Source of the DNA: a virus
Taxonomy: Duplodnaviria > Caudoviricetes
Virus record (IMG/VR): IMGVR_UViG_3300028738_000008
DNA: 64,000 bases
Strand: one strand, 5' to 3'
Within the stretch, counting starts at the first letter, position 1; the number at the start of each line of letters is the position of its first letter. The translations under genes and the position numbers were made by a program. The notes under the pieces were generated by a model that had not been told where the DNA came from, did no database searches, and saw only the letters and a program-made list of their open reading frames with translations. Positions 6,550-62,080 of this stretch are shown here, piece after piece.

Positions 6550-6858
6550 ATGAAATGGTATGTAAAAATCGAAAACAAGCCTAACTTGCGCATAGCCGTA
6601 ACTTATGATGGGCTTACAAATACTCTTATCTTTACTGGCGAATACAAAGAAAAGAATCTTCTATGGATTCCGATAACCAGAAATGAGGTTAAGTATTCAA
6701 ATGAGACATTTGAGATAATCTCAGAAATTCTGTATAACGTCCATATAAAGATGGCGGCAGTCGTTGACAATATAAATTATATCGCTAATCAGTTCGAAAG
6801 CATAAAACTGATTGAAGTGGTTGACGATGCCGAAAATACTATAGGCGAAATAGATTAG
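6550..6858 (+). CDS. hypothetical protein
   Basis: 102 aa ORF ending TAG-TAA. Confidence 0.65.
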   Translation: MKWYVKIENKPNLRIAVTYDGLTNTLIFTGEYKEKNLLWIPITRNEVKYSNETFEIISEILYNVHIKMAAVVDNINYIANQFESIKLIEVVDDAENTIGEID

Positions 6859-6878
6859 TAAATGGCTTTAAATGGTGA

Positions 6879-8375: not shown

Positions 8376-8727
8376 ATATTCTATGTATTAGCGTTTGTGA
8401 TCTTTTTGAGGGTGCTTTTGTTAAAAATGCTGAATATCTTGACTCATTATAATTGATATCAAAATCATATTGATTTTTTGTAATATCTATGATTGTGCCA
8501 TCAAGTTTATTTTTTAAAAACCAGTGAGTATCGTTATTTATTTTTAATATTGATGGACAATAAATTTCCTTTTCGTCATCATCTAATAAATGATATAACG
8601 TTTCAGTTGCAACATAACAGTGACCTGTATATTTGTTTCTGAATGGCATTTTTCTGTATTTAGGCTTTAATAAGCTGTCATCCAGATTTTCGATTATTAA
8701 TTTAATTAATTCTTTCATATTTTTCAC
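8356..8727 (-). CDS. hypothetical protein
   Basis: 123 aa, GHCYVATETLYHL motif; preceded by a Bacteroidota-type promoter. Confidence 0.7.
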   Translation of the reverse strand: MKNMKELIKLIIENLDDSLLKPKYRKMPFRNKYTGHCYVATETLYHLLDDDEKEIYCPSILKINNDTHWFLKNKLDGTIIDITKNQYDFDINYNESRYSAFLTKAPSKRSQTLIHRIYEESGL

Positions 8728-8750
8728 GCATCTTATTTACTAATGCGATG

Positions 8751-8790
8751 CAAAGATAAAAAAAAGGACTCACAAATGCAAGTCCTTTTT
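8751..8790 (-). terminator. capsid-operon terminator overlapping a Bacteroidota sigma-type promoter
   Basis: Minus strand AAAAAGGACT-N10-AGTCCTTTTTT hairpin; CTTG (8782-8779) N20 TATCTTTG (8758-8751). Confidence 0.7.
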
Positions 8791-8805
8791 TAAATATATT
8801 TACGA

Positions 8806-10449: not shown

Positions 10450-10492
10450 AGTTTTTTTAATTTTTATTCTTTATTTCTTATGTTTGCCTAAA

Positions 10493-11836
10493 TTATCTTT
10501 TTTCAACGTAGTCAATAACCTTCTGCATTCTTCTCATGTGCTCGTTATTGATGTAAGTAGTTTTTTCGCTCACTTCATCTAATTTTTGTTTTGAAGACGG
10601 CTGTATAGAGGCTGATACTTTCGCTTCAAGACTTTCAGTGATAGGTTTCTTTCCTTTTTTCATTTCTGAAATAACGGATTTGTACTTATTCTGTGATTCG
10701 GTGATATCATTAATGTTTTTGAATTCATTAATAACTTTTAATTTTTCTTGTTGAGTCAATGCTAATTCTTCATTTATCAAGATATTGTTAACATGTGCAA
10801 GGTTGGTATTAAATACAGCCATTTCTTTTAACTGAGTTCTGTATTTTCCCAAGGCAGTTTTGTATTTGTCGATAATTGCCGTAGCTTCTTCGTTCAACTT
10901 AATAGTAGCATTCAATTTCTTGGTTACTGCTTTGTTTTCGTTGATAAGTCCAGCTACTTTCTTTTTAGACTCTTGCATAAAGGCTGGAGACTGATCCTTT
11001 TCGCCTGCGCTAAGATATTCATTGTTTGGGGTATGTCTGCCAGTGTTGTTACGTCTAGCAGTATAAGACAAACCATGAGATTCATCAACTTCGGGTTCAT
11101 TTGAAAATTCTTCTTCCTGTAATGCACTGTCGATTTCGTCGTCAGATGGAAGTTCGATTTCATATACAGAATCAAGACCTTCTTCCGCACCTGCTTCTGT
11201 TGAATCGTCAAATGATGTTTCTGCACCTGCTTCTGTGTCACCTGTGACATCAGTTTCTGGTTCAGTACCTTCAAGACCCATTGCAGCTATAATGCTATCC
11301 AATTTATTTCTTAATTCGATTAATTCGTTTCCAACACTTTCGTCGTCGCCAACTTCTTCGCCTGCGGCTTTTTCACCTGCTTCTTCACCTTCTGGTTCAT
11401 TGCCTTCAATTCCGCCATCTGGAGCTTCTTCGCCTGTGTCGCTCATGTTATCAAATTCTGATAATTCCCTTTCAATGTCTTCCATTGTCAGAGACATGCC
11501 ACCAGCATTTGCGTCACCTTCTGTTTGATCAAATTCTTCTTTGATTACATCCTTTGCTGGGATGTCTTTACCTTTAACTTTTTTCTCGGTCTCTTTGGTT
11601 TTCATAACAGAATCTTTGTTTTTTTTATCGTCCGATTCTTCGGACTCTTTATTTTTGTCAACATCATCCTTGTCGGATTCTTCTGTTGATTTTTTATTTT
11701 TCTTAAATTCTTCCTTGATCAATTCGCTGATCTTAGCAGGGTATTCTTCAGCCAACAAATTTTTAGCTCTTGCCGTAGCAGCTTCTTTCAATTGGTTGTA
11801 CTCTATTAAGGCTTCTTTTAATTTATTCTTTTCCAT
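10493..11836 (-). CDS. prohead core/scaffolding protein (gp22-like)
   Basis: Acidic N-terminal half and coiled-coil C-terminal half; located between protease and capsid genes. Confidence 0.75.
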   Translation of the reverse strand: MEKNKLKEALIEYNQLKEAATARAKNLLAEEYPAKISELIKEEFKKNKKSTEESDKDDVDKNKESEESDDKKNKDSVMKTKETEKKVKGKDIPAKDVIKEEFDQTEGDANAGGMSLTMEDIERELSEFDNMSDTGEEAPDGGIEGNEPEGEEAGEKAAGEEVGDDESVGNELIELRNKLDSIIAAMGLEGTEPETDVTGDTEAGAETSFDDSTEAGAEEGLDSVYEIELPSDDEIDSALQEEEFSNEPEVDESHGLSYTARRNNTGRHTPNNEYLSAGEKDQSPAFMQESKKKVAGLINENKAVTKKLNATIKLNEEATAIIDKYKTALGKYRTQLKEMAVFNTNLAHVNNILINEELALTQQEKLKVINEFKNINDITESQNKYKSVISEMKKGKKPITESLEAKVSASIQPSSKQKLDEVSEKTTYINNEHMRRMQKVIDYVEKR

Positions 11837-50653: not shown

Positions 50654-50827
50654 ATGAATGAACAATTAAAAATTGGCGACGTGGTTGATTTAAAATCAGG
50701 AGGCCCACGAATGACATTAGGTACTTTCCAGAGCAATGGAAAATGGCTTGCGCAGTGGTTTACTGGTGAAGAACTGAGACATGGCGAATTCCGTACTGAG
50801 CAAATCGAATTGTCAAAAGACGAATAA
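50654..50827 (+). CDS. YodC/DUF2158-like small protein (57 aa, absent from the ORF track)
   Basis: LKIGDVVDLKSGGPRMTL...WF. Confidence 0.85.
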   Translation: MNEQLKIGDVVDLKSGGPRMTLGTFQSNGKWLAQWFTGEELRHGEFRTEQIELSKDE

Positions 50828-50838
50828 TCAATGATTTC

Positions 50839-50890
50839 GTTTCACAATTCATGAAATAATTTACAGAATTTCATGAATTGTGAAACTTTT
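50839..50890 (+). terminator. 19-bp perfect stem followed by a T run
   Basis: GTTTCACAATTCATGAAAT-N10-ATTTCATGAATTGTGAAAC-TTTT. Confidence 0.7.
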
Positions 50891-50903
50891 TCAAAATATT
50901 TTG

Positions 50904-50942
50904 TATTTATATTTGCAAGTTACAAATTAATGATTACCTTTG
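50904..50942 (+). promoter_or_regulatory. composite promoter of tRNA operon 1
   Basis: TATTTATA (50904-11), TTTG (50912-15), N19, TACCTTTG (50935-42). Confidence 0.8.
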
Positions 50943-50971
50943 TACCGAAATAAAATTTTAAGAAATATACA

Positions 50972-51043
50972 ATGAGAACAATTTTTAACATAGTACCGCA
51001 GCATCAACCACAACCCTTGAAGTATCTTCAATCGAATGGCTGA
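50972..51043 (+). CDS. leader peptide 1, MRTIFNIVPQHQPQPLKYLQSNG
   Basis: 23-aa ORF between promoter and terminator; core codons CCG CAG CAT CAA CCA CAA CCC. Confidence 0.8.
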   Translation: MRTIFNIVPQHQPQPLKYLQSNG

Positions 51044-51071
51044 ACTATGTAAAAAATAAACATACATAATG

Positions 51072-51108
51072 ATCCCCTTTAATTGAAAGATTAAAGGGGA
51101 TTTTTTTT
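51072..51108 (+). terminator. attenuator terminator 1
   Basis: ATCCCCTTTAAT-TGAAAG-ATTAAAGGGGAT followed by a T run, ending 3 nt before the first tRNA. Confidence 0.88.
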
Positions 51109-51110
51109 AT

Positions 51111-51195
51111 CTAGGCGTAGCCCTGTAGTTGGTAGCAGTCCTGATTTGGGATCAGGCGTGGTAACACCTCGTGAGTTCGACCCTCACCGCTTAGA
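51111..51195 (+). tRNA. tRNA-Pro(TGG) with long variable arm
   Basis: CCTGA-TT TGG GA-TCAGG; acceptor CTAGGCG/CGCTTAG. Confidence 0.8.
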
Positions 51196-51205
51196 CAAAA
51201 TTTAT

Positions 51206-51282
51206 CTGGGAGTTATGCAGAGGCAATACAACGGTATTTTGGAAATATCGGCTCGTGAGTTCGATTCTCACCTCTCAGACCA
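51206..51282 (+). tRNA. tRNA-Pro(TGG)
   Basis: TT TGG AA loop; GTGAG TTCGATT CTCAC; encoded CCA. Confidence 0.8.
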
Positions 51283-51310
51283 CTGATTATCAGTTCTTTG
51301 AATAATTTAT

Positions 51311-51383
51311 AGAGTAGTATATCAATTGGCAGATTACCGCATTCGGGATGCGGAGGCTCTGGATTCGAGTTCCAGTTACTCTA
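51311..51383 (+). tRNA. tRNA-Pro(CGG)
   Basis: CCGCA-TT CGG GA-TGCGG. Confidence 0.82.
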
Positions 51384-51393
51384 CTGATTAGAT

Positions 51394-51467
51394 GGTGTCT
51401 ATAGTGCAATTGGTAGCATGACAGATTGTGGTTCTGTTGATGACAGGTTCGAACCCTGCTAGACACA
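51394..51467 (+). tRNA. tRNA-His(GTG)
   Basis: ACAGA-TT GTG GT-TCTGT; G-1 present. Confidence 0.85.
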
Positions 51468-51495
51468 CTAAATGCGAATTGCATTTTATTAAAAT

Positions 51496-51570
51496 GGTGA
51501 TTGTAGCTTAAACGGATAAAGCGCATGCCTGTGAAGCATGTATATGCGAGATCGTACCTCGTCTTTCACC
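51496..51570 (+). tRNA. tRNA-His(GTG), divergent
   Basis: CATGC-CT GTG AA-GCATG; G-1/C73; two T-T acceptor mismatches; atypical T-loop. Confidence 0.7.
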
Positions 51571-51590
51571 CTAATTTTAAATTAAAGATC

Positions 51591-52355
51591 ATGTATTACG
51601 TTGTACAGAAGAATGTTTTTAGGGAAGAAAATTACGATAATTTGATTATCGCTTTGAATCGGTTGGAGTTGCCATATGAGATCGTTGATGTATTACCTTT
51701 TGTAGACACCTTCGAATTCAAGACAACCAGAAAGGATGTTTTTCCTTTCGGAGCTGTTAAAATGTCAAGAATTGCCAAAGAATTGGACTGGAATCCAGGC
51801 TCTCAATTATGTGACAATCATGACTATAACGTATATAGTAAGTATTATAAAGAAAACTTGCTGAACTACGATTCAAGGATTATCAGGTTTGGCGATGATT
51901 TCTTTCAAACAGAAAGGTTCTTTGCACGTCCGACATTGGATACTAAAGTGTTTACTGGTCATGTGTTTGACATGGGCGAATGGATTAAGTTCAGAGACGA
52001 ATCCATTGTCAATGGACATAGCACTTTACTGAACACAGATACTGAAATTCAGATTTCTTCTGTAAAAAATATACAGAAAGAAATAAGGTTTTGGATTGTG
52101 AAAGGCGAAATCGCCACAGCAAGTCAGTATTCTCTGGGTGGAAGATTCTGTGTGAATGAAAACGTCGATCAGTCGGCATATGACTTCGTAAACAGAATGA
52201 TTAAGATATTCGAATTGAATGATACCTTTATTATAGATGCATGCCTTGTTAAAGGCGAATACAAAATAGTTGAATGCGGTTGCACAAACAGTGCTGGCTT
52301 CTATCGAGCAGATATGCAAAAGCTGCTTATGAAATTGGAAGACGCTTTCAATTAA
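51591..52355 (+). CDS. ATP-grasp protein (DUF4343/R2K-like) embedded in tRNA operon 1
   Basis: FFARP..DTKVFTG, IQKEIRFWIVKGEI, FIIDAC...YKIVECGC.NSAGFY; start corrected to ATG 51591 because the listed start lies inside tRNA-His. Confidence 0.8.
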   Translation: MYYVVQKNVFREENYDNLIIALNRLELPYEIVDVLPFVDTFEFKTTRKDVFPFGAVKMSRIAKELDWNPGSQLCDNHDYNVYSKYYKENLLNYDSRIIRFGDDFFQTERFFARPTLDTKVFTGHVFDMGEWIKFRDESIVNGHSTLLNTDTEIQISSVKNIQKEIRFWIVKGEIATASQYSLGGRFCVNENVDQSAYDFVNRMIKIFELNDTFIIDACLVKGEYKIVECGCTNSAGFYRADMQKLLMKLEDAFN

Positions 52356-52362
52356 TATAAAT

Positions 52363-52438
52363 TGCCTTATGGTGTAATTGGCAACACACCTGATTCTGAT
52401 TCAGTTGAGTGAAGGTTCGAGTCCTTCTAAGGCATCCA
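52363..52438 (+). tRNA. tRNA-Gln(CTG)
   Basis: TT CTG AT loop; U1-A72; encoded CCA. Confidence 0.85.
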
Positions 52439-52445
52439 ACTATAT

Positions 52446-52517
52446 TGCCCTGTTATGTAATGGCTAGCATACGACACTTTGACTGTCGGAGTTACGGTTC
52501 GAATCCGTACAGGGCAA
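52446..52517 (+). tRNA. tRNA-Gln(TTG)
   Basis: CGACA-CT TTG AC-TGTCG. Confidence 0.87.
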
Positions 52518-52603
52518 CAAAATTTAACGATATATTAGCGTTATTTAGAATCATTTTTTTTACATAATGTGCATATTTTTACTATTTATAGGTAAAATAT
52601 ACC

Positions 52604-53617
52604 ATGAAAATATTATTTATATTAAAAGAAAGATTTTATAATAATTCGTTAATCAAGTCATATGGACTAATGAATTCATCAACGCATGTTTCGAAGTATT
52701 TAGACTCTATTGGACTTTGCACAAAAGTAGTGAGAGTTGTTGATGGAAATTCAATTGATAAAGAGGTTCATGAATACAAACCAGATGTCGTCATTATTGA
52801 GGCTTTATGGGTAAGCGGCGAAAAACTAAAAGAACTTATTGAGATAAAGAGATATTCCCATATCAGATGGATTGTAAGAGTTCACAGCGATATTGGCTTC
52901 TTGGCTGCTGAGACTTTGGCATTGAAATATATTAATGATTACATTAGCCTCAATAAGCATAATTTGGTCATAGCACCAAACAATAAGGAATTTAATGAGT
53001 ATCTTACGAATGCTATGAATTTTAAATTCAAATATCTTCCCAATATTATTAATGTTAAATCATCAGATCATTCTTTAGTAAAGCATCCGCACTCAATAGA
53101 TATTGGATGTTTTGGTGCATTAAGAATACTGAAAAATCATGTATTTCAAGCTATGTGTGCAATGAGCGCAGCGGATATATTAAATAAGACATTGCGCTTT
53201 CACATTACTGTAGATGCGAACGCCGATAAAGCAAATCTAAATCCAGTATTAAAGAATTTGGAGGAATTATTTAAACGTAGTTCTCATGAATTGATCTGTC
53301 ATCCTTGGATGGAGAATGACGAGTTTCAGGGTCTGGTTAGAAAAATGGACATAGGCTTACAGCTTTCATATACCGAAAGCTTCAACATTGTCGCAGCAGA
53401 TTTTGTTAATAATGATATTCCAATTATCGTATCAGATGCCATTGATTGGATGCCAGATATATTTAAAACATCTACAATTGATTACGAAGAAGCGACTAAT
53501 AAAATAGTTTCAATCTATAAATCCAGAACTTTGGGTCATAAAAAGAATGTTGCTTTTGATAGTTTGGTAAAATATAATCGTAAGGCTCAACAAGAATGGC
53601 TAGATTTCATTATCTAA
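52604..53617 (+). CDS. glycosyltransferase (GT-B, GT4-like)
   Basis: IGCFGALRILKNH, LQLSYTESFNIVAADFV...PII. Confidence 0.8.
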   Translation: MKILFILKERFYNNSLIKSYGLMNSSTHVSKYLDSIGLCTKVVRVVDGNSIDKEVHEYKPDVVIIEALWVSGEKLKELIEIKRYSHIRWIVRVHSDIGFLAAETLALKYINDYISLNKHNLVIAPNNKEFNEYLTNAMNFKFKYLPNIINVKSSDHSLVKHPHSIDIGCFGALRILKNHVFQAMCAMSAADILNKTLRFHITVDANADKANLNPVLKNLEELFKRSSHELICHPWMENDEFQGLVRKMDIGLQLSYTESFNIVAADFVNNDIPIIVSDAIDWMPDIFKTSTIDYEEATNKIVSIYKSRTLGHKKNVAFDSLVKYNRKAQQEWLDFII

Positions 53618-53666
53618 AGTCAAGTGCTTATTATGAAATTAAAAGTATTTATTTTAAAATAATATC

Positions 53667-54437
53667 ATGACAGTAACGAATAGTAAACAGAGACTTTTTG
53701 AAATGATGTCCAGATTGGATGGCAATTTCAATTCAAGTCTAAACGAAAATGACGATAAGCTTGTTGATAGAGAGTTAATAGAAAACAAACGAACCGAAAA
53801 GAAGAAGGTTATCAATGAAAACAAGCTTTTCGAAATGAATAATAAGTTGAATGAGTTGGGTCAAAACGATCCTTGGGATGCTGAGGTTGATGCAGCATCA
53901 CGTAGAGCTGAAATTAAAGCTTATTATGGTGGTAATCATACTCAGGGTGATGACGATGATGATTACGATGTAAAACCTCGTAGAGCTAGATTTTATTCTG
54001 ATGATGAAGATGAAATGGACGAAAATAAGCTGACTGAATATCCTTCCGAGAAACCCACACATGGTCAAGACCCTAATTGGAGTATTGACCCAAAAAATCC
54101 TTCGGGATGTCTACCTAATCTTCCTATGGATGAGGGCGATATGAATGAGGCTATTAACGTTGGTGACGTTTTACAATATTTAGATGACGGCACATTTTGG
54201 AAAATAATTGATATAACCAACGGAATAGCAACAGCTTTTGACGGATTTAAAACAAAAGGAAAAATTGAGGCGAACAAATTAGTTGCCAATAATAATCTAA
54301 AAATATCTAAAGATGTTGACGGTAGGTTATTTAAAAGCTTAGTAGCGAAAGCAAAAGAGCATATTAAGAATAATGGCACAGATGAGGATGATTATATTAA
54401 TAGCGGCTACCCAATGGACGAAAATGAGCTGAACTAA
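53667..54437 (+). CDS. acidic hypothetical protein, putative internal head protein
   Basis: N-terminus SKQRLFEMMSRLDGNF is shared with 57226..58299. Confidence 0.65.
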   Translation: MTVTNSKQRLFEMMSRLDGNFNSSLNENDDKLVDRELIENKRTEKKKVINENKLFEMNNKLNELGQNDPWDAEVDAASRRAEIKAYYGGNHTQGDDDDDYDVKPRRARFYSDDEDEMDENKLTEYPSEKPTHGQDPNWSIDPKNPSGCLPNLPMDEGDMNEAINVGDVLQYLDDGTFWKIIDITNGIATAFDGFKTKGKIEANKLVANNNLKISKDVDGRLFKSLVAKAKEHIKNNGTDEDDYINSGYPMDENELN

Positions 54438-54477
54438 TAAAATAGTGAATTATTTTAAACTTTTTTGATTTTTTTAC

Positions 54478-54516
54478 TATTTATATTTGCAGGTATCAAA
54501 AATTGTATTACCTTTG
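54478..54516 (+). promoter_or_regulatory. composite promoter of tRNA operon 2
   Basis: TATTTATA, TTTG, N19, TACCTTTG. Confidence 0.8.
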
Positions 54517-54546
54517 TACCGAAATTAATATTTAAGAATAGAAACA

Positions 54547-54639
54547 ATGAGAAATTTACTTAACATAGAATTATTGGCAGTGGATCAGGTCAACCTCCTA
54601 TTATGGGCGGATGAAGATAGATTATGCCATGCTGGTTAA
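54547..54639 (+). CDS. leader peptide 2, MRNLLNIELLAVDQVNLLLWADEDRLCHAG
   Basis: 30-aa ORF between promoter and terminator; 19 of 30 residues are L/D/E/V/A/W. Confidence 0.78.
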   Translation: MRNLLNIELLAVDQVNLLLWADEDRLCHAG

Positions 54640-54664
54640 GTAGAGTTTAAGAATATTTTAAACT

Positions 54665-54695
54665 AAACCCCCAGCATACGTGTTGGGGGTTTTTT
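54665..54695 (+). terminator. attenuator terminator 2 with competing antiterminator
   Basis: AAACCCCCAGCA-TACG-TGTTGGGGGTTTTTT; ATGCTGG (54629-35) can pair with CCAGCAT (54671-77). Confidence 0.88.
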
Positions 54696-54739
54696 GTTTA
54701 TGTACGTTATTTGACATGTTGGGTTATAAAATTAAAATT

Positions 54740-54811
54740 GGTCTATTGGGGTATGGGTTATCCTTTGTGGTTGTCAGCCATGAGAAGCGAGTTCAAGTCT
54801 CGCATAGACCG
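54740..54811 (+). tRNA. tRNA-Asp(GTC)
   Basis: TT GTC AG loop; G73. Confidence 0.8.
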
Positions 54812-54870
54812 CACTAAGCATTATGAGAGTACTTGCCACTAGGGTAAGCCAACCTAAATTGCTTTTTCAT

Positions 54871-54944
54871 ACCTTCGTAGGGGAGTGGTCGTCCCTGTCG
54901 CACTGTCTATGCGAAGATCGCCAGTTCAAATCTGGTCGGGGGTG
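54871..54944 (+). tRNA. tRNA-Asp(GTC)
   Basis: TCGCA-CT GTC TA-TGCGA; G73. Confidence 0.82.
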
Positions 54945-54973
54945 CTGGTTTCATAATAAATGAAACATTTAAT

Positions 54974-55046
54974 GCTCGGTTCATCTAACTGGTTAGGATA
55001 GGTGACCTTCAATCATCCAATACGGATTCAAGTTCCGTACCGAGTA
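54974..55046 (+). tRNA. tRNA-Glu(TTC)
   Basis: CC TTC AA loop (C33). Confidence 0.78.
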
Positions 55047-55056
55047 CTTTTTTCAT

Positions 55057-55131
55057 GCTCCTATCGTCTAGTTGGTTCAAGGCGTCTGTTTTACAAGCAG
55101 AATATCGGTGGTTCGAATCCATCTGGGAGCA
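55057..55131 (+). tRNA. tRNA-Val(TAC)
   Basis: TCTGT-TT TAC AA-GCAGA. Confidence 0.85.
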
Positions 55132-55140
55132 CAAATTTAT

Positions 55141-55213
55141 GGCTTAGTAGACCAACGGCAGAGTCATCAGACTTAAACCCTGTACAGTGTGGGTTCGAAT
55201 CCCACCTAAGCTA
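55141..55213 (+). tRNA. tRNA-Leu(TAA), short variable arm
   Basis: CT TAA AC loop with weak anticodon stem; canonical T arm. Confidence 0.72.
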
Positions 55214-55220
55214 CAAATAT

Positions 55221-55294
55221 GGCTCAGTATCCCAATTGGCAGAGGAAGTTGACTCAAAAACAACTAGTTGTCGGTTCGAATCCGACTTGAGCTA
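55221..55294 (+). tRNA. tRNA-Leu(CAA), short variable arm
   Basis: GTTGA-CT CAA AA-ACAAC. Confidence 0.8.
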
Positions 55295-55305
55295 CAATAT
55301 AATAT

Positions 55306-55378
55306 GGATCGGTAGACCAACGGCAGAGTCACTTGTTTTAGAAGCAAGCCAGTGAGGGTTCGAATCCCTCTCGATCTA
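55306..55378 (+). tRNA. tRNA-Leu(TAG), short variable arm
   Basis: CTTGT-TT TAG AA-GCAAG. Confidence 0.82.
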
Positions 55379-55388
55379 CAATATTTAT

Positions 55389-55475
55389 GGGGAATTGATG
55401 GAATGGTAGACATCCTAGTTTTAGAAACTAGTGCGAAATAATAGTAGCGTGTGAGTTCGAGTCTCACATTCCTCA
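55389..55475 (+). tRNA. tRNA-Leu(TAG), long variable arm
   Basis: CTAGT-TT TAG AA-ACTAG. Confidence 0.87.
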
Positions 55476-55595
55476 CGCAATATTCAATGGGAACGCATGT
55501 GTTAACATCGTGGCGTCCGTCACGTAGATGGGAAACAGAACAGGGAGCATGCCTAGAATCTCGTTTAGGGTTGGAGATTTACTTTAATAATTATG

Positions 55596-55668
55596 GGGCA
55601 GTAGCTCAATTGGCTAGAGCACTACACTTGCAATGTAGAGGTTGTGGAATCGTCCTCCATCTGCTCCA
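55596..55668 (+). tRNA. tRNA-Ala(TGC)
   Basis: CTACA-CT TGC AA-TGTAG; G3-U70; atypical T-loop. Confidence 0.85.
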
Positions 55669-55696
55669 CTGATAATCAGGAGATTATCTATTTTAC

Positions 55697-55786
55697 ACGT
55701 CTATGTCCGAGTGGCTTAAGGAACTGGTCTCCAAAACCAGCGTGGGTGACACCATATCCAAGGTTCGAATCCTTGTTGGCGTGCCA
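55697..55786 (+). tRNA. tRNA with Trp anticodon (CCA) and long variable arm
   Basis: CTGGT-CT CCA AA-ACCAG; G73; encoded CCA; 90 nt. Confidence 0.8.
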
Positions 55787-55853
55787 GAGAATAAATGTTG
55801 CGAATCTTGTAACATTTATTCTTTTTTTTCGTATAATTTGTAAAAATAACAAT

Positions 55854-56042
55854 ATGAGAGTTAAGATTGGCGATAAAATTGTGGATACAGAAGACGAGCC
55901 TATCATGCTTATTTTCGAAGACGATGCTGAAAGAAAAATGGTTGCGAATACAATTGGCGACATGATTTCAGGCTGTAAACGTTATTGCATGTATCCAAAA
56001 GATACCGATATTGATACTATTAATTTTTTCATGATATGTTAA
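55854..56042 (+). CDS. hypothetical protein
   Basis: Start corrected to MRVKIGDK; the listed upstream extension overlaps tRNAs. Confidence 0.65.
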   Translation: MRVKIGDKIVDTEDEPIMLIFEDDAERKMVANTIGDMISGCKRYCMYPKDTDIDTINFFMIC

Positions 56043-56716
56043 TTATTTCAAAGAAAAAGGACTATTACGATGGCGTTGTTCAAACAACAGGCATTGATAA
56101 GACAATTGTTTATAATAGAAAGCAAAATGATATCAGAGATTCATTCGATGATTATAAAAAGCTTCCAGCGGACTTAATTAAGTTGGTTGAAAATCTCACA
56201 GCCTTTCATTTGGATACTAAGAAGACTAATTTGGAATTAAAGGGGATTTACATAATCGCTTTTTGCGGACAAATGTATGTCGCATGGGAAATGATTGACA
56301 GAAAACCATTCAATGATTATGATCCGAAATCAATTATAACGTATGATTTAAAAGGCATGCAAGAAATTGTTATCGATAAAACATGGCGTGATGCTGTTGG
56401 CATTGTAGACGCTTATAGAAACCTTGTTAATTACGACCCTATGAAGCTTCACAGATTATATAATAGTCCTGTTTTCGCCATCGATACGGCATTTGTAAGG
56501 TATGGCGCACGTGACTCCAACTTCATACTCAACCCAACGTTGAAAACGTATAAATTCTTCAAGCTTTTTGATTCATTTCAGGCTTTGCAAGAAATTCAAA
56601 TGTTTATTTCTGGTGTGTTGGGAACTGGCGAGAATAAGATGATAGAAGTAGCTGATAAATATAAAATAGAAAGTCATGGATTCGACAAAACATCCTTCCG
56701 AAAAGAAAAAAAGTGA
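56036..56716 (+). CDS. hypothetical phage protein
   Basis: MLIISKKKDYYD...QEIQMFISGVL...GFDKTSFRK. Confidence 0.75.
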   Translation: MLIISKKKDYYDGVVQTTGIDKTIVYNRKQNDIRDSFDDYKKLPADLIKLVENLTAFHLDTKKTNLELKGIYIIAFCGQMYVAWEMIDRKPFNDYDPKSIITYDLKGMQEIVIDKTWRDAVGIVDAYRNLVNYDPMKLHRLYNSPVFAIDTAFVRYGARDSNFILNPTLKTYKFFKLFDSFQALQEIQMFISGVLGTGENKMIEVADKYKIESHGFDKTSFRKEKK

Positions 56717-56785
56717 GCCTGAAAACTGCTGCGGCAAAACTGCCAATGTCATTGAGCAGAGAAAGAAAAGTAAAGTAAAAAAGAA

Positions 56786-57190
56786 ATGAGATTATTAATA
56801 TTACTTTTTTACTTACCAATATTATCCTTTTCGCAGACCACTGTGATCGGTCATGTTTCAGCAACTGTAATTGAGTCTGTGTTTGTCAAGAATGTGTATA
56901 ATTCTGGGTATACGGCAATAGATAAGAGTATCGACTCAACAACCGTTACATCTGCAATCATAACTACAACGCAGTTCAATCCGAATATTTTTACGATTAC
57001 AATTCCAACAACAAGTAAAATTGTTAAGAATACTAATGGCAAGGATTCAATGAGTGTTTTCAATTTTAAAACCGTTGGGTTTAAAATTGACACAATTACA
57101 ATAAATGGGATAGTAGCACCAATGCCAAAGCAATCTTCTGGCAATTATATATCGACTACGCCCATACCAATCATAGTAAATTATAATTGA
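56786..57190 (+). CDS. secreted beta-rich protein (DUF4402-like)
   Basis: Signal peptide MRLLILLFYLPILSFS-Q; C-terminal GNY.....IIVNYN. Confidence 0.6.
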   Translation: MRLLILLFYLPILSFSQTTVIGHVSATVIESVFVKNVYNSGYTAIDKSIDSTTVTSAIITTTQFNPNIFTITIPTTSKIVKNTNGKDSMSVFNFKTVGFKIDTITINGIVAPMPKQSSGNYISTTPIPIIVNYN

Positions 57191-57223
57191 AAAAGGGAAG
57201 CTTTATTAGCCTCCCTTTTTCTT
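57190..57223. terminator. bidirectional terminator
   Basis: AAAAAGGGAAGCT-TTATT-AGCCTCCCTTTTT. Confidence 0.75.
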
Positions 57224-57225
57224 GT

Positions 57226-58299
57226 TTAGTATTTGGTTGAGTATGTGGCATACATTTTGAAGTCATTTTTCGTTAAAGCAGAGTCTCCGCCATCACGACC
57301 AGACATCTTGTCAGCCAATTTTTTTGCCAATTTAGCATTGTATATCAAAACATTTACCATTTGCGGATTAAACTCATATTTATCAATGTTATTTAAATAT
57401 TCGTCGTCAGCTGGGTTATACATTAAGGTAATACTGGCATTTTTTTCTTGTGAGAAGAATGTAAATGCAAATATGTCCCCATTATTAGCACCTCTTAACT
57501 CGACTTTAGCAAATCTAAATGGAACTGGAGCACTTTGACCAGATGATCTATCCATAATCATAAGCTGAACATCAATGTTATTAAGATACTTCTTAAATAA
57601 GCTATCGAGAACATCTTGTCTTATCTTTCTAGTTCGTGAATCGGTTCTATCCGCCTTAAATGCTTTAGCTCCCATTTCGGGCCCGATTTCATCAATAGCC
57701 AAATCCGCTTTAAATGACTTATTATCAGCATTTTTATCATAAACATCGCCATCATTGAACGATTTAATGCCGTCACGTGGACGAACGTCTTGATCTTCAT
57801 CCATATCATTTTCGTCATCAACAGTATATTTTCCAATATCCTCAACTCCAACTCCTTCAATTGAATCGTCAGTAGTTCCGTCATTAAGATCGGCTTCATC
57901 CATTTCGCCTTCATCTGACATTCCATCATCGCCAAAGAAATTTTCTCTACTCTCAACAAAGTCACCCCAAGAGGTCGCTAGAAATTGTTTGTTCTTTGTA
58001 TCGTAAACAATTGTTTTTGTATATGTATCACCCATATTAACATATATGCCAATTGCATCCCTGAAATAATTGTCAACGAATTCATTTTCATCTGTAATAG
58101 ATTCCACACCATATCCTTCAAGATATTTATTAGCCGCATCCATAGCATTTTCAGCGGCTGCGTGTGATAAATGTTGTGTATTAAGTTTCTCAGCATATTT
58201 TTCGATCATATCGCCATTTTCATCGGCTTCATTTGCGTTGAAGTTTTGATCCATTCTACCCATGACTTCAAATAGTCTGTTTTTACTAGTTTTTTTCAT
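57226..58299 (-). CDS. acidic hypothetical protein, putative internal head protein
   Basis: N-terminus SKNRLFEVMGRMDQNF is shared with 53667..54437. Confidence 0.7.
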   Translation of the reverse strand: MKKTSKNRLFEVMGRMDQNFNANEADENGDMIEKYAEKLNTQHLSHAAAENAMDAANKYLEGYGVESITDENEFVDNYFRDAIGIYVNMGDTYTKTIVYDTKNKQFLATSWGDFVESRENFFGDDGMSDEGEMDEADLNDGTTDDSIEGVGVEDIGKYTVDDENDMDEDQDVRPRDGIKSFNDGDVYDKNADNKSFKADLAIDEIGPEMGAKAFKADRTDSRTRKIRQDVLDSLFKKYLNNIDVQLMIMDRSSGQSAPVPFRFAKVELRGANNGDIFAFTFFSQEKNASITLMYNPADDEYLNNIDKYEFNPQMVNVLIYNAKLAKKLADKMSGRDGGDSALTKNDFKMYATYSTKY

Positions 58300-58305
58300 A
58301 TTGTT

Positions 58306-58737
58306 TTAATTAAATCCTACTATGCAGGTATTATTTTTAAAATCGAATTGTAAGTCAGCAGCATATAATGTTCCGCCATTTTGTAATGTCGCTCCGCCGA
58401 TAACATACTTCCATTTATATTCGTTAATGTTTTTCTTTGTGCTTGAAATAAGCTCGTCACTATTCTTATCACGTAATTCGAGATCAAAAGTACCTGTCAA
58501 GCCATTTATAACAATTTTCATAAGTCCAATACCCTCTTCGTCAGGATTAAAGCCAACACCCCAGCTAAGTACAATACTACTATCATTAATATCTGACTCA
58601 TACTCGGATGATATGTTATCATAATTAAAAAAATGTGACTGAGCAATTGGTTGTGTGAAGGCGAATTGTCCGTTTGTGAATGAGTAATTCTCATTGATTG
58701 ACTTTATTTCGTCGTCGATTATTTTGTTAATATTCAT
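58306..58737 (-). CDS. hypothetical protein
   Basis: 143 aa, begins MNINKIIDDEIKSINE. Confidence 0.7.
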   Translation of the reverse strand: MNINKIIDDEIKSINENYSFTNGQFAFTQPIAQSHFFNYDNISSEYESDINDSSIVLSWGVGFNPDEEGIGLMKIVINGLTGTFDLELRDKNSDELISSTKKNINEYKWKYVIGGATLQNGGTLYAADLQFDFKNNTCIVGFN

Positions 58738-58840
58738 AATGTCAATATTTTTATAATAAATACTTACACAAACTCTTTTCGTTTGTATTTATGTTAAAAC
58801 AATTTAAAGCATATTTTTTTATTAAAAATACCTGATTTAT

Positions 58841-60463
58841 ATGAAAACATTACACGAATCGCCATTTGTATATTTATATGAAAACTCTGGCCATAAGGAA
58901 AAAACTGTTCGTAGCATTAATATAAATGCAAGTAAGGCACAAGCAATATACGTTCCAGTGCCACCACCAACAGTTAACGCCTTATTAATGACTTTTAATG
59001 ATATATCAGGTACTTTTGTTACAGACCCATCATCTGTTGAAGAATGGAACATATTTTTTGATTTACCAGTAAATGGTAATCCGTTTACATCTGTCTCAAT
59101 ATCTTCAAATACCGTTAGTTTATTTGGCGGTAGTGACATAACTCTAAAAAATTACTTATTCGGCGATACTGATTTTGGAAACAATCTGTTGGAGTTCATT
59201 GATGATAGCGGAATCATTATTAATAGTGGTAATGGAGCATTTAGCGATACAGGCGAAATTGGTAATGGATGCCACAATATAACAAAAATATCAATGTCAG
59301 CATGCGTATCATTAGGTGATGAAACATTTGCTGATTGCTATTCATTAACAGATTTATCATTACCATTCGATAGTTATGTTACCTTGGGTTCAAATATTTT
59401 TCGTTCTTGTGGTATGGCATCATTAAGCTTTTCATCATTAACAATGGCTGGAGATAGCTGCTTCAATAGCTTGTCACTTTTAACTGAATTTAGTGCACCA
59501 ATATTAATCGTTGCGGATATGAATTGTTTTTCTGGATGCGTTGCAATATCAGCAATATCATTGCCGTCATTAACAACGGCTGGAGACGGCTGTTTCAGTA
59601 ATTGCGTATCGTTATCAATTCCTGATCTACCAATTGCAACAACTGCTGGAGTTAACTGCTTTTACAATTGTTCGACATTATCATCATTATCATTACCAGA
59701 TTTAGTTACTGCTGGAGAAAGCTGTTTCAGTAATTGCGTATCGTTATCAACTGTCGATCTGCCATTATTAACAACTGCTGGAAATGGTTGCTTTTACGGT
59801 TGTCCATTATCATCATTATCATTACCAGATTTAGTTACTGCTGGAGAAAGCTGCTTTATGGGAATAAGATCATTTACTACCATGAATTTACCATCCTTAT
59901 CATCGATAGGTACTACTTGTTTTCAAGATTGCGCATCTTTGTTAGCAGTTAATTTACCAGCATTAATCACAATGGGCGAAGGCTGTTTTAATGGATGCAC
60001 ATCTTTACTAACAGTAGACATGCCACAGTGTCAAACAGCTGGCGGCGGTTGCTTTAGTTATTGTACGTCGTTAACATCAGTAGACATGGCATCACTGATT
60101 TCAATGGGAAATTCATTTTTTTTAAACTGCATATCTTTAGTGACATTAAATCTTCCTTTATTATCGTCTGCCACGCAATCTTGTTTTGCGACCTGTACAT
60201 CATTGGTAGACATCAGTTTACCATCATTAATATCAACTGGTAATTATTTCTTTAACGGCTGTACGTTATTAACAAACATCAGTTTACCGTCATGCGTTAG
60301 TTTAGGACTTACTTTATATAATGATTCAGTTTTCAATAATATTACAGGCAAAAAAATAACTTTAACAGTGCCAACAGCTTTAATGACTTGTAATAGTGGA
60401 TCGCCTGATGGTGATATAGCTTATTTACAGGCTAATAACATAGTAACACTGATAACAGTTTAA
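58841..60463 (+). CDS. BspA-type leucine-rich repeat protein
   Basis: LLMTFNDI module, about 14 L.TAG..CF..C..L repeats, TVPTALMTCNSGSPDGDIAYL cap. Confidence 0.82.
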   Translation: MKTLHESPFVYLYENSGHKEKTVRSININASKAQAIYVPVPPPTVNALLMTFNDISGTFVTDPSSVEEWNIFFDLPVNGNPFTSVSISSNTVSLFGGSDITLKNYLFGDTDFGNNLLEFIDDSGIIINSGNGAFSDTGEIGNGCHNITKISMSACVSLGDETFADCYSLTDLSLPFDSYVTLGSNIFRSCGMASLSFSSLTMAGDSCFNSLSLLTEFSAPILIVADMNCFSGCVAISAISLPSLTTAGDGCFSNCVSLSIPDLPIATTAGVNCFYNCSTLSSLSLPDLVTAGESCFSNCVSLSTVDLPLLTTAGNGCFYGCPLSSLSLPDLVTAGESCFMGIRSFTTMNLPSLSSIGTTCFQDCASLLAVNLPALITMGEGCFNGCTSLLTVDMPQCQTAGGGCFSYCTSLTSVDMASLISMGNSFFLNCISLVTLNLPLLSSATQSCFATCTSLVDISLPSLISTGNYFFNGCTLLTNISLPSCVSLGLTLYNDSVFNNITGKKITLTVPTALMTCNSGSPDGDIAYLQANNIVTLITV

Positions 60464-60502
60464 ATTAATTTGAAGAATTTAAACTTTTTTATAAAAAATC
60501 AC

Positions 60503-60542
60503 TATTTATACTTGCAGATGTAATTTATTTGAATTACTTTTG
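60503..60542 (+). promoter_or_regulatory. composite promoter of tRNA operon 3
   Basis: TATTTATA, CTTG, N20, TACTTTTG. Confidence 0.8.
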
Positions 60543-60571
60543 CACCAGTTAAAAACAATTAAAAAATAGAA

Positions 60572-60649
60572 ATGATGAATGCAACACTTAAATACGGAAA
60601 GACTACTAAATCTTATAAAAAATATAAGATGAAGAAGGACTGTGTGTAA
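60572..60649 (+). CDS. leader peptide 3, MMNATLKYGKTTKSYKKYKMKKDCV
   Basis: 25-aa ORF with 8 Lys and 3 Tyr between promoter and terminator. Confidence 0.8.
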   Translation: MMNATLKYGKTTKSYKKYKMKKDCV

Positions 60650-60671
60650 GTGAACTATATATAATATATTC

Positions 60672-60706
60672 AAAAACCCAGTCTTAATTTAAGTCTGGGT
60701 TTTTTT
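60672..60706 (+). terminator. attenuator terminator 3 with competing antiterminator
   Basis: AAAAACCCAGTCTTAA-T-TTAAGTCTGGGTTTTTTT; AGGACTG (60636-42) can pair with CAGTCTT (60679-85). Confidence 0.85.
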
Positions 60707-60720
60707 ATGTTAAAAAATTC

Positions 60721-60792
60721 GCTCCTATAGCTTAATGGTAAAGCCTTCGACCTTTAATCGAATGACCCCTGAATCAGTATCAGGTGGGAGCA
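60721..60792 (+). tRNA. tRNA-Lys(TTT), divergent
   Basis: TTCGA-CC TTT AA-TCGAA (C33); T-loop ATCAGTA. Confidence 0.75.
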
Positions 60793-60808
60793 CAGAGTAT
60801 AGTAAGTC

Positions 60809-60879
60809 GCTTCTATAGCTCAATGGTAGAGCTTGTAACTTTTAATTATAAGACCTCGGTTCGATTCCGAGTAGGAGCA
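60809..60879 (+). tRNA. tRNA-Lys(TTT)
   Basis: CT TTT AA loop; canonical T arm. Confidence 0.85.
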
Positions 60880-60889
60880 CAAAATTATT

Positions 60890-60962
60890 GCCTTCGTAGC
60901 TTAATCGGGAAAGCTGTACACTCTTAATGTAAGGAGCGTGAGTTCGATCCTCACCGAGGGCA
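60890..60962 (+). tRNA. tRNA-Lys(CTT)
   Basis: CT CTT AA loop. Confidence 0.85.
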
Positions 60963-60969
60963 CAAATAT

Positions 60970-61051
60970 GGGATGGATGGTAAGCAGGCGAAATCAGCGG
61001 ATTGTAAACCCGTCGCTACCAGCTATTTAGGTTCGAATCCTAACCGTCCCA
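60970..61051 (+). tRNA. tRNA-Tyr(GTA)
   Basis: TT GTA AA loop; long variable arm. Confidence 0.82.
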
Positions 61052-61110
61052 CGTGAGAGACCGTTATAATTTCAAAGTCCACTTGGTATCGGAAGCGTAG
61101 AAATTAATTT

Positions 61111-61194
61111 GGGGATGTATGCAAATGGTTGAAGCAAGCGGTCTGTAAAACCGTGACGTAAGAGACGATGCTGGTTCGAATCCAGCCAGCCCCA
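61111..61194 (+). tRNA. tRNA-Tyr(GTA)
   Basis: GCGGT-CT GTA AA-ACCGT; long variable arm. Confidence 0.87.
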
Positions 61195-61256
61195 CTTGGT
61201 AGACTGTTATAATTTCATAGAACCCATTAAGTGTGGTATGCGTGGAAATTAAAAAT

Positions 61257-61337
61257 GGCGGCAGACGGGTAATGGAAATCCTAGGGGCATGCAATCCTGA
61301 GTCACAGACTATGTTGGTTCGAATCCAACCGTCGCCA
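61257..61337 (+). tRNA. atypical tRNA-like gene of unresolved identity
   Basis: Acceptor GGCGGCA/CGTCGCC and T arm GTTGG TTCGAAT CCAAC; anticodon region GGGGCATGCAATCCT is non-canonical. Confidence 0.5.
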
Positions 61338-61361
61338 CAATGAATTAAAAATTAATTAGAT

Positions 61362-61601
61362 ATGGAAACATTAGTAGAAATCATCAAAGGAAATCGTGCC
61401 GTTATGTCGCACGTATGCAATGCTAAAGCTTATTTTATCATTGAAACAATGAATAACAAGTATCAACTTGAAATGGACAGCACTGATGGTGATTGGAAGA
61501 CAACACACATGCAGACTGAATACGCTGCTATCACATTAATGCGATGGATACGCCGAGGTATTGACGAAAAGGACGGAACATTTATATCACTATATGAATA
61601 A
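61362..61601 (+). CDS. hypothetical protein at the end of tRNA operon 3
   Basis: 79 aa ORF followed by a terminator. Confidence 0.7.
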   Translation: METLVEIIKGNRAVMSHVCNAKAYFIIETMNNKYQLEMDSTDGDWKTTHMQTEYAAITLMRWIRRGIDEKDGTFISLYE

Positions 61602-61623
61602 GTTACAATCAGCTTGGAAATAA

Positions 61624-61658
61624 GAATGGCGATTGAAGAAATTTAGTCGCCATTTTTT
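61624..61658 (+). terminator. intrinsic terminator
   Basis: AATGGCGATT...AGTCGCCATT followed by a T run. Confidence 0.75.
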
Positions 61659-61697
61659 GTAACCTTTTTGGTTTCTTAACGTATAAGTATTAAAATT

Positions 61698-61769
61698 GGC
61701 TCGTTAGTTCAGCGGTTAGGGCGTCTGACTCTAAATCAGAAGGCATGGTTTCGAATACCATACGAGCCG
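61698..61769 (+). tRNA. amber suppressor tRNA (anticodon CTA)
   Basis: TCTGA-CT CTA AA-TCAGA; perfect acceptor stem GGCTCGT/ACGAGCC; G73. Confidence 0.88.
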
Positions 61770-61783
61770 CAAATAATTATAAT

Positions 61784-62080
61784 ATGAGAAAAATAACTGT
61801 TGAAAATGTGATGGCTGATGATCCTATGAAGGTACTCCAGCAATGGCGTAGCGTTAATGATAAGATCACCAGATTCATAAACGTGGCAAATCCAAGGGTT
61901 TATATGTTCATATTTGGCGAATCAGAAGGCATGCGACTATGGGAACATTTCGTAAACAATTGCGACAGACATGATTTCCAGAAATTTATGACATATTTAA
62001 CATCAGAGCAATACAATGACCTGATGATCAATTTATATTATAATGACGGCATGTATTCATTGGTGCATTATAACGATTAA
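61784..62080 (+). CDS. hypothetical protein
   Basis: Start corrected to MRKITVENV; the listed start lies inside the suppressor tRNA. Confidence 0.7.
   Translation: MRKITVENVMADDPMKVLQQWRSVNDKITRFINVANPRVYMFIFGESEGMRLWEHFVNNCDRHDFQKFMTYLTSEQYNDLMINLYYNDGMYSLVHYND

Follow-up and report, generated by a model that had tools for sequence, protein, structure and literature searches.

The tRNA operon and its leader

The subject of this report is the first of three tRNA operons (operon 1) in a stretch of 64,000 nucleotides of viral DNA (IMG/VR record IMGVR_UViG_3300028738_000008; the whole stretch is called the window below), in which a short open reading frame (ORF) rich in codons for proline, histidine and glutamine, followed by an intrinsic terminator, stands directly ahead of genes for tRNAs of the same three amino acids. 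All features of the operon lie on the plus strand. Its putative promoter (50904..50946) consists of TTTG (50912-50915), a 19-nt spacer and TACCTTTG (50935-50942); it fits the -33/-7 type of the Bacteroidota, the consensus of Bacteroides promoters being TTTG / TAnnTTTG, and transcription is predicted to start near 50948. The extended promoter motif of 43 nt is present in exactly three copies in the 64-kb window, each before a leader and a tRNA cluster, and in none of 100 shuffles.

The leader ORF of 23 codons (50972..51043, ATG to TGA; MRTIFNIVPQHQPQPLKYLQSNG) begins about 24 nt past the predicted transcription start and holds in frame, at 50996..51016, the run CCG CAG CAT CAA CCA CAA CCC (PQHQPQP), to which an earlier note, made from the sequence of this DNA, had drawn attention; it is the candidate sensor run. 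The weak A/T hairpin reported by that note after the stop codon is found with TATGTA at 51046-51051 and TACATA at 51063-51068, and is followed by the terminator (51071..51110; stem 51071-51102, T8 tract 51101-51108) with the core ATCCCCTTTAAT / ATTAAAGGGGAT, the loop TGAAAG and a predicted stability of -18.0 kcal/mol. The 12-bp stem of the note is present (12-14 bp, with 14 pairs counted), while the distance to the first tRNA gene is 2 nt and not 3, a gap into which a promoter would not fit.

Behind the terminator ARAGORN calls all seven tRNA genes listed by the earlier note, with the anticodons TGG, TGG, CGG, GTG, GTG, CTG and TTG. Five of them, Pro(tgg) at 51111-51196, Pro(tgg) at 51206-51282, Pro(cgg) at 51311-51384, His(gtg) at 51395-51468 and His(gtg) at 51497-51571, form a block (51111..51571), which is followed by a 254-aa ORF of the R2K clade of ATP-grasp proteins (51591..52355; Pfam R2K_3 8e-15, R2K_2 3e-12) and by Gln(ctg) at 52363-52438 and Gln(ttg) at 52446-52518 (52363..52518), the two glutamine genes being found by ARAGORN and Rfam alike. 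The Rfam tRNA model backs six of the seven genes, leaving 51206-51282 unmatched and giving 51111-51195 only 35 bits. At 86 nt, the first tRNA-Pro carries an insertion in its variable region; in the second, which encodes CCA, the D arm is aberrant. These two copies may be unusual or decaying.

Leader composition follows the downstream tRNA set

Each of the five distinct anticodons of operon 1 has a codon in the run that it can read (CCA/tgg, CCG/cgg, CAT/gtg, CAG/ctg, CAA/ttg), CAT being read by gtg via G:U wobble and not by a Watson-Crick pair. The stronger wording of the earlier note, a match codon for codon, holds in that the codons are present, but it adds nothing past the match of amino acids (p ~0.19 given the peptide and the codon usage of the phage). 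The match of amino acids itself is far from expectation. With a P+H+Q background of 0.068 among the residues of the window's long ORFs, a 7-codon run in the leader ORF has p ~1e-7; PQHQPQP is the sole such run in the ~128,000 six-frame codons of the window, and eight of the 22 residues of the leader are P, H or Q where 1.5 are expected (p=6e-5).

The layout of promoter, mini-ORF, terminator and tRNA cluster is found in three operons of the window. Leader 2, MRNLLNIELLAVDQVNLLLWADEDRLCHAG, stands ahead of genes for Asp, Asp, Glu, Val, four Leu, Ala and Trp tRNAs, and leader 3, MMNATLKYGKTTKSYKKYKMKKDCV, ahead of three Lys and two Tyr tRNAs; leaders 1, 2 and 3 are enriched for the amino acids of their own set (p=6e-5, 3e-4 and 2e-5) and none is enriched for the set of another. 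In operon 2 a sigma-70-type element, TTGACA-16-TAAAAT (11/12; 54711-54738), separates the terminator from the first tRNA-Asp, and TTGACATGTTGG is conserved there in G001, a close relative introduced below; by its sequence the element could be a second, unattenuated promoter, or it could be irrelevant in a Bacteroidota host.

At the DNA level the window shows only weak similarity, namely to the LR7565xx phages of 462-735 kb and to the Prevotella Lak phages, and near-identical DNA is found in peat metagenomes only, the sequencing runs listed in the searches for it being of DNA and none of RNA; to judge from the sequence, the window is part of the genome of a huge, uncultured phage. The likely host belongs to the Bacteroidota, in which translation is initiated without a Shine-Dalgarno sequence. 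Four relatives, G001 to G004, were fetched via the ATP-grasp ORF (95%, 67%, 66% and 46% identity), more of their contigs then being read, and all four carry the ATP-grasp gene at the same position, between His and Gln tRNA genes. The metagenome scan with this ORF gave four loci, which include the contigs L028 and L029, where the homologue is 64-69% identical and tRNA genes are not nearby. A scan of viral contigs with a leader-specific DNA pattern returned 52 loci, of which just three, already known, were real.

In the orthologous operon 1 leaders of G001 to G003 the composition is kept and the sequence is not. The leader of G001 (L002:2941-3012; MRTIFNIVPQHQPQQLKSFQSNG) differs from that of the window by changes that are synonymous, remain within the set (CCC to CAA, Pro to Gln) or compensate in a hairpin, while the leaders of G002, MKNLVNIVPQPQQHPQILEWGNYA, and G003, MKNLMNINPQQHPQTLEWGFYA, carry VPQPQQHPQ and NPQQHPQ, respectively. 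A fourth putative attenuator is seen in G001. Between its first tRNA-Pro and the rest of operon 1, G001 also has a 174-aa HNH_3 endonuclease ORF (L002:3176-3700), which the window lacks and which has the appearance of a homing endonuclease inserted into the tRNA operon.

The decisive case among the sequences compared is the most distant of the four relatives, G004 (a contig of 425 kb, 97% complete), where the tRNA genes are regrouped and the leaders follow the new groups. Three Gln and five Leu tRNA genes stand behind MKNSVNILLQQLQLLQLRSCGRFCIM, which contains LLQQLQLLQL; three Met, three Lys and two Arg genes stand behind the KRM-rich MKTIITIKRRTIKRMMRKMIIFSNQV; and genes for Tyr, Thr, Pro, Ala, Ser, Cys, His, Gly, Val and Arg stand behind MKTTSSTYHFASGRCSAGYPVAPTSDNPVTYVFE, a T/S/Y/H/A/G/R/C/P/V leader for exactly those tRNAs. 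Many small ORFs are scattered through the tRNA region of this contig.

Three published but unannotated genomes extend the pattern. Prevotella phage Lak-B1 (MK250020.1; L031:24530-24727) has a C/M/H/P/G/R-rich leader ahead of His, Pro, Arg, Arg, Gly, Gly, Cys and Met, LR756500 has VHIIHIWEHLLEEV within the leader ahead of His, Glu, Val, Trp and Leu, and LR756501 has TPAPAVAFRRGTGTGTGTCVPAGCG within that ahead of Arg, Thr, Val, Ala, Gly and Pro, and the design thus recurs in at least five huge-phage lineages besides that of the window. When ten leader classes from at least six lineages were scored against ten tRNA sets, each leader scored highest on its own set, and in a permutation test of the pairing only 1 of 40320 arrangements of eight classes, and none of 1e6 of ten classes, reached the observed score. 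All 13 leaders examined are ORFs with a start codon, and the leaders have a conserved N-terminus, M-[RK]-x-x-x-N-I.

Predicted competing RNA structures in the leader

The nascent RNA of operon 1 was folded up to the loop of the terminator with a 28-nt ribosome mask. In these folds a composite antiterminator is formed, in which TTCAAT (51027-32), GAA and GG, a 5' strand at 51027..51039 and 2-14 nt ahead of the stop codon, pair with CC, TTT and ATTGAA at 51075-87, positions that belong to the 5' arm and loop of the terminator, and which encloses the TATGTA/TACATA hairpin. The pairing contributes a ddG of -5.4 kcal/mol compared with -2.1 +/- 1.3 for shuffles (p=0.03), and -0.3 with a ribosome on the stop codon. 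That the antiterminator is less obvious in operon 1, as the earlier note put it, agrees with our view of the locus, the terminator of which differs from those of G002 and G003; its candidate, TCTTCAAT with ATTGAAAGA, was partly right, the folded pairing having the core TTCAAT:ATTGAA and extending further via GAA:TTT and GG:CC.

The position of the ribosome decides which structure is predicted. The 5' arm of the terminator is paired with the leader with a probability of 0.57-0.58 only when the A site is on codons 8-15 (V8-P15), the sensor run, compared with 0.20 from L16 on, 0.14 at the stop codon and 0.20 without a ribosome, and these figures are stable when the footprint edge is varied between +9 and +15 and when a polysome mask is used. 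The comparison of ribosome positions proposed by the earlier note thus has this outcome in the equilibrium fold: the antiterminator forms with the ribosome masked on the sensor codons and is blocked with the ribosome on the stop codon, where the 5' strand (51027-39) is inside the footprint of the terminating ribosome.

In the ribosome-free minimum free energy fold the antiterminator 5' strand is held by two further helices, which were absent from the earlier note, as were the promoter and the ATP-grasp ORF within the operon. One is the hairpin H1, TTGAAG-TAT-CTTCAA (51017..51031; arms TTGAAG/CTTCAA). The other is the long-range helix P1 (50982-94 : 51044-56; AACATAGT:ACTATGT), whose 5' strand, region 1 (TTTTTAACATAGT, 50982..50994), covers codons 4-8 and belongs to the N-terminal motif conserved among the leaders, and whose 3' strand (ACTATGTAAAAAA, 51044-51056) overlaps the TATGTA/TACATA hairpin (51044..51068 together). 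The P1 duplex is predicted at -13.3 kcal/mol, compared with -8.6 +/- 2.6 for shuffles (p=0.058), and an equivalent helix of codons 3-9 with the stop-codon region reaches p<=0.06 in ten of the 13 leaders; the codon side of P1 is the conserved 'N-I' motif, AACATAG. In the folding model P1 would act as the 1:2, or anti-antiterminator, pairing.

Close relatives retain these structures. H1 reads TTGAAA-TCT-TTTCAA in G001, a compensatory change from G-C to A-T with respect to the window, and a compensatory change between window and G001 is also found in the terminator of operon 2. Terminator 1 is identical in G001, and over the 80 nt from TTCAAT to the T tract the two differ by one loop base. In most relatives a near copy of the 3' arm of the terminator, able to pair with the 5' arm, is located in the last few codons of the leader, as is the case with GAATGGGG just ahead of the stop codon in the operon 1 leaders of G002 and G003 (p=0.004-0.018). 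The pairings in relatives comprise GAATGGGG:CCCCATTC in operon 1 of G002 and G003, AACCCGGTT:AACCGGGTT, AACCAGG:CCTGGTT and ACAGTCGGG:CCCGACTG, and pairings of leader with 5' arm outperform dinucleotide shuffles in eight of 13 leaders (p=0.002-0.024; copies of 8-11 bp in the relatives). In 12 of the 13, a ribosome on the stop codon would cover the proposed antiterminator strand, window operons 1 and 3 having been entered in this count with the separately proposed strand and not with the best duplex. The exception is Lak-B1, with its strand CTTTACTTGAGG 28-40 nt before the stop codon and beyond the footprint of the terminating ribosome, a leader that may represent a different timing design.

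A proposed transcription switch gated by decoding of the leader

With a probability of roughly 0.8, we consider operon 1 to be controlled by a trp-like, ribosome-mediated (leader-peptide) transcription attenuator with tRNA genes as its targets, as the sequence and the folding models suggest. The reading of the earlier note as a leader-peptide attenuator is in this respect supported, all sequence-level parts being present and the leader composition tracking the tRNA sets across phages. The sequence itself shows which parts are present and in which order, that the codons match, that leaders and tRNA sets covary among phages and that the switch is plausible on thermodynamic grounds.

Transcription would begin near 50948, from a promoter type common only to the other tRNA operons of the window, and a ribosome would translate the 23-codon leader as RNA polymerase nears the terminator (51071-51108). 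With Pro-, His- and Gln-tRNAs plentiful, the ribosome would reach the TGA and cover 51027-39, upon which the terminator would fold and the transcript end 2 nt before the first tRNA. Upon slow decoding at any of the seven sensor codons, the stalled ribosome would cover region 1 and the 5' half of H1 and free TTCAAT..GAA..GG, which would then pair with the terminator in its 5' arm and loop, the TATGTA/TACATA hairpin being kept inside; with the antiterminator formed, the polymerase would read through into the three Pro and two His tRNA genes, the ATP-grasp gene and the two Gln tRNA genes. Without a ribosome, P1 (AACATAGT:ACTATGT) and H1 would lock the leader and termination would prevail. The net effect would be a negative feedback that matches the supply of Pro, His and Gln tRNAs to demand in the infected cell, and this feedback on tRNA supply would be direct, since the ribosome would stall for want of the very tRNAs that the operon encodes. 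From this arrangement we infer that the leader is translated, where transcription starts, in which direction the switch works and that the signal is the supply of tRNA and not of amino acid.

Several observations weigh against this scheme. The sensor is unable to tell a low level of tRNA from a low level of amino acid. The folding is an equilibrium calculation with an assumed ribosome footprint and not a kinetic simulation, and a ribosome that has advanced to the final sensor codons with its A site leaves region 1 uncovered once more. The antiterminator of operon 1 is weak, about -5 compared with -18 kcal/mol for the terminator and with p=0.03 only, and a simple duplex of leader 1 with the 5' arm of the terminator alone is not significant (p=0.3). 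The simple duplex is not significant either for operon 2 (p=0.37) or operon 3 of the window; operons 1 and 2 reach significance only with the ribosome masked and with a pairing that may include the loop and enclose internal hairpins, and operon 3 does not reach it even then at the stall site tested. The leaders were chosen by eye according to position, as the ORF ending just ahead of a terminator, and some selection bias is possible. Finally, the cluster of Glu, Asp, Asp, Val, Glu, Phe, Ile, Ile, Asn and Trp tRNA genes in G004 (L032, that is G004:60001-80000, at ~6780-11030 on the reverse strand) has no recognisable leader or terminator upstream, which implies that not all tRNA clusters are gated this way. 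The sole ORF upstream of this cluster was considered as a leader and rejected, as it is not enriched for the tRNA set and a terminator is absent.

Alternative explanations

The explanation that fares best among the alternatives, although we regard it as unlikely, is a switch that is coupled to translation and responds to another signal. It could report general translation capacity or a host starved of amino acids, or serve as a timer by which the tRNA operons are opened as host translation declines; such a switch might work without a defined antiterminator, for example through contact between ribosome and polymerase. The weakness of the operon 1 antiterminator would suit it, as would a sensor that, as we reason, is blind to the difference between uncharged and absent tRNA, and the one special promoter common to all tRNA operons of the window suggests a common temporal control. 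A general sensor, however, needs no leader whose composition tracks the downstream tRNA set in every operon and lineage, and the antiterminators of the relatives are strong and well placed.

That the short ORF encodes a small protein in its own right and has a terminator of its own, the tRNAs being transcribed by constitutive leakage through it or from another promoter, appears improbable. The N-terminus M-[RK]-x-x-x-N-I shared by the leaders would be expected of a protein, but these conserved N-terminal codons are largely explained by the RNA helix P1, and the rest of the peptide is conserved in composition only, in step with the tRNA set. The sigma-70-like TTGACA-16-TAAAAT between terminator and first tRNA would supply another promoter in operon 2, while in operon 1 the T tract and the tRNA are just 2 nt apart.

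Direct sensing of tRNA without translation, similar to a T-box, in which the run would consist of specifier codons that pair with anticodons, is still less probable. Codons do exist for each downstream anticodon, but a search of Rfam over 50800-62000 at E<=0.1 gave tRNA matches only and no T-box, leader family or other known element. The runs are moreover always in one frame of an ORF from ATG to stop, though stops are frequent (6.6% of codons), the stop codon always lies beside the antiterminator strand and the changes between orthologues are synonymous or remain within the set. Least probable, and effectively refuted by the run and by the permutation test, is coincidence, in which an ORF with a P/H/Q run would lie ahead of a tRNA cluster by accident: the ORF is small, and 23 codons stay open by chance with P ~0.2, but the run is of p ~1e-7 and unique in the six frames of the window and the design is found in three operons here and at least five other lineages. 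The small-protein, T-box-like and chance explanations are contradicted by the covariation of leaders and tRNA sets, by the structure of the ORF, by the gap of 2 nt and by the lack of Rfam matches, and ribosome-mediated attenuation of the tRNA operon is retained as the preferred explanation.

Neighbouring genes and further tRNAs of the window

The ORFs at 52604-53617 (with a weak GT4-like match) and 53667-54437 follow tRNA-Gln(ttg), and no terminator was detected at 52519-54437, between this tRNA and the promoter of operon 2; the transcript of operon 1 may therefore extend through both ORFs and place them under the same attenuator.

ARAGORN finds 21 tRNA genes in three clusters and a lone tRNA with the anticodon CTA in the window, to which the Rfam tRNA model adds two, tRNA-Lys(UUU) at 60721-60792 (53.5 bits) and tRNA-Glu(UUC) at 54974-55046 (48.7 bits). 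Both of these tRNAs missed by ARAGORN have C33 in place of the near-universal U33 in the anticodon loop, beside the wobble base, while the tRNA-Glu of G001 has a normal U33. tRNA-Lys(UUU) and tRNA-Glu(UUC) are among the tRNAs that known anticodon nucleases cleave in the anticodon loop. By their sequence the C33 tRNAs may be cleavage-resistant variants (compare PMC10264068).

The lone tRNA (an amber suppressor, which ARAGORN labels 'Pyl') lies not behind a leader but behind a 79-codon ORF and the terminator of that ORF (61626-61653; terminator and tRNA within 61626-61770), an arrangement kept in G001. Stop-codon recoding was considered as a confounder, the totals of open frames being uninformative on TAG recoding; the leaders end in TGA or TAA, and the amber suppressor tRNA is therefore irrelevant to them.

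Relation to known attenuation systems

The leader-peptide attenuators of the enterobacterial amino-acid operons, such as trpL, hisL, leuL and pheL, are the classical form of this mechanism. They have been modelled in PMC1183508. Operon 1 shares with the trpL type the promoter-proximal mini-ORF, the run of regulatory codons, the intrinsic terminator and a candidate antiterminator, weak in this operon, that is predicted to need a stalled ribosome, as well as a 1:2 pairing that would enforce termination without translation and a stop codon placed such that the terminating ribosome would mask region 2. It differs in being a phage element that regulates tRNAs and one ATP-grasp ORF and not biosynthetic enzymes, in lacking sequence or Rfam similarity, and in the location of region 1, which occupies the conserved N-terminal codons ahead of the sensor run and does not overlap that run.

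Multivalent attenuators are represented by thrL (Thr and Ile) and by ilvL/ivbL (Ile, Leu and Val), in which, as here, a single leader senses several amino acids via mixed codon runs. The mix of Pro, His and Gln, in contrast, has no metabolic logic and mirrors the tRNA genes downstream, and it is reshuffled between phages, Gln being combined with Pro and His here and with Leu in G004.

Closest in spirit are attenuators of translation components. The pheM leader of pheST in Escherichia coli is an attenuator of aminoacyl-tRNA synthetase genes. A His leader peptide has been described upstream of hisS paralogues in bacilli (PMC2965389). In these cases leader-peptide attenuation acts on a translation component for the same amino acid, but the component is the charging enzyme, whereas here it would be the tRNA itself and the loop would close on the sensed molecule. 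The T-box (RF00230) similarly attenuates transcription according to the state of one particular tRNA, with translation-related genes under its control; it binds the uncharged tRNA directly and works free of ribosomes, in contrast to the element here, which is an ORF and has no T-box match.

To our knowledge, the regulated genes of the attenuators known are all genes for amino-acid biosynthesis, transport or aminoacyl-tRNA synthetases. Operon 1 departs from these with seven tRNAs and an R2K ATP-grasp ORF as downstream genes, and no published leader-peptide control of tRNA genes was found in a full-text literature search. What appears to be new, as judged from the gene content, is therefore tRNA genes as regulated cargo, the type of mechanism being already known from the enterobacterial attenuators. 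Arrays of phage tRNAs are treated, in the portions available of two papers, as a counter to host defences that target tRNAs or to a mismatch in codon usage (PMC10264068, PMC11464382). The cargo in those portions belongs to the same gene class, and the window also has anticodon-loop variants with C33; their concern there is why phages carry tRNAs, and transcription control that senses demand is not described in them.

Significance for huge phages

The reasons for which phages carry tRNA genes, and the expression of these genes, have been debated for decades. If the attenuator operates as proposed, the phage would gauge the decoding speed per codon family and supply tRNA on demand, and classical attenuation would reach beyond metabolism to the adaptor molecules, the molecule that is sensed being also the one whose production is regulated. 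A sequence signature for tRNA transcription units in uncultured phages would also be at hand, as the composition of a mini-ORF would equal the downstream tRNA set, and the leaders could act as compact, programmable sensors of tRNA supply.

Taken together, and more speculatively, with odds that we place at about one in three, the attenuators may constitute a monitor of decoding capacity resolved by amino acid, through which each tRNA family lost by the host would be replenished as needed from the matching phage operon. The design would then be an inducible counter-defence and tRNA homeostat, and a widespread one among the huge phages that infect Bacteroidota. Such loss of host tRNAs would be brought about by transcription shut-off, by tRNA turnover or by anti-phage anticodon nucleases. 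The hypothesis bears in this way on how phages may take over translation and escape from defences that cleave tRNAs.

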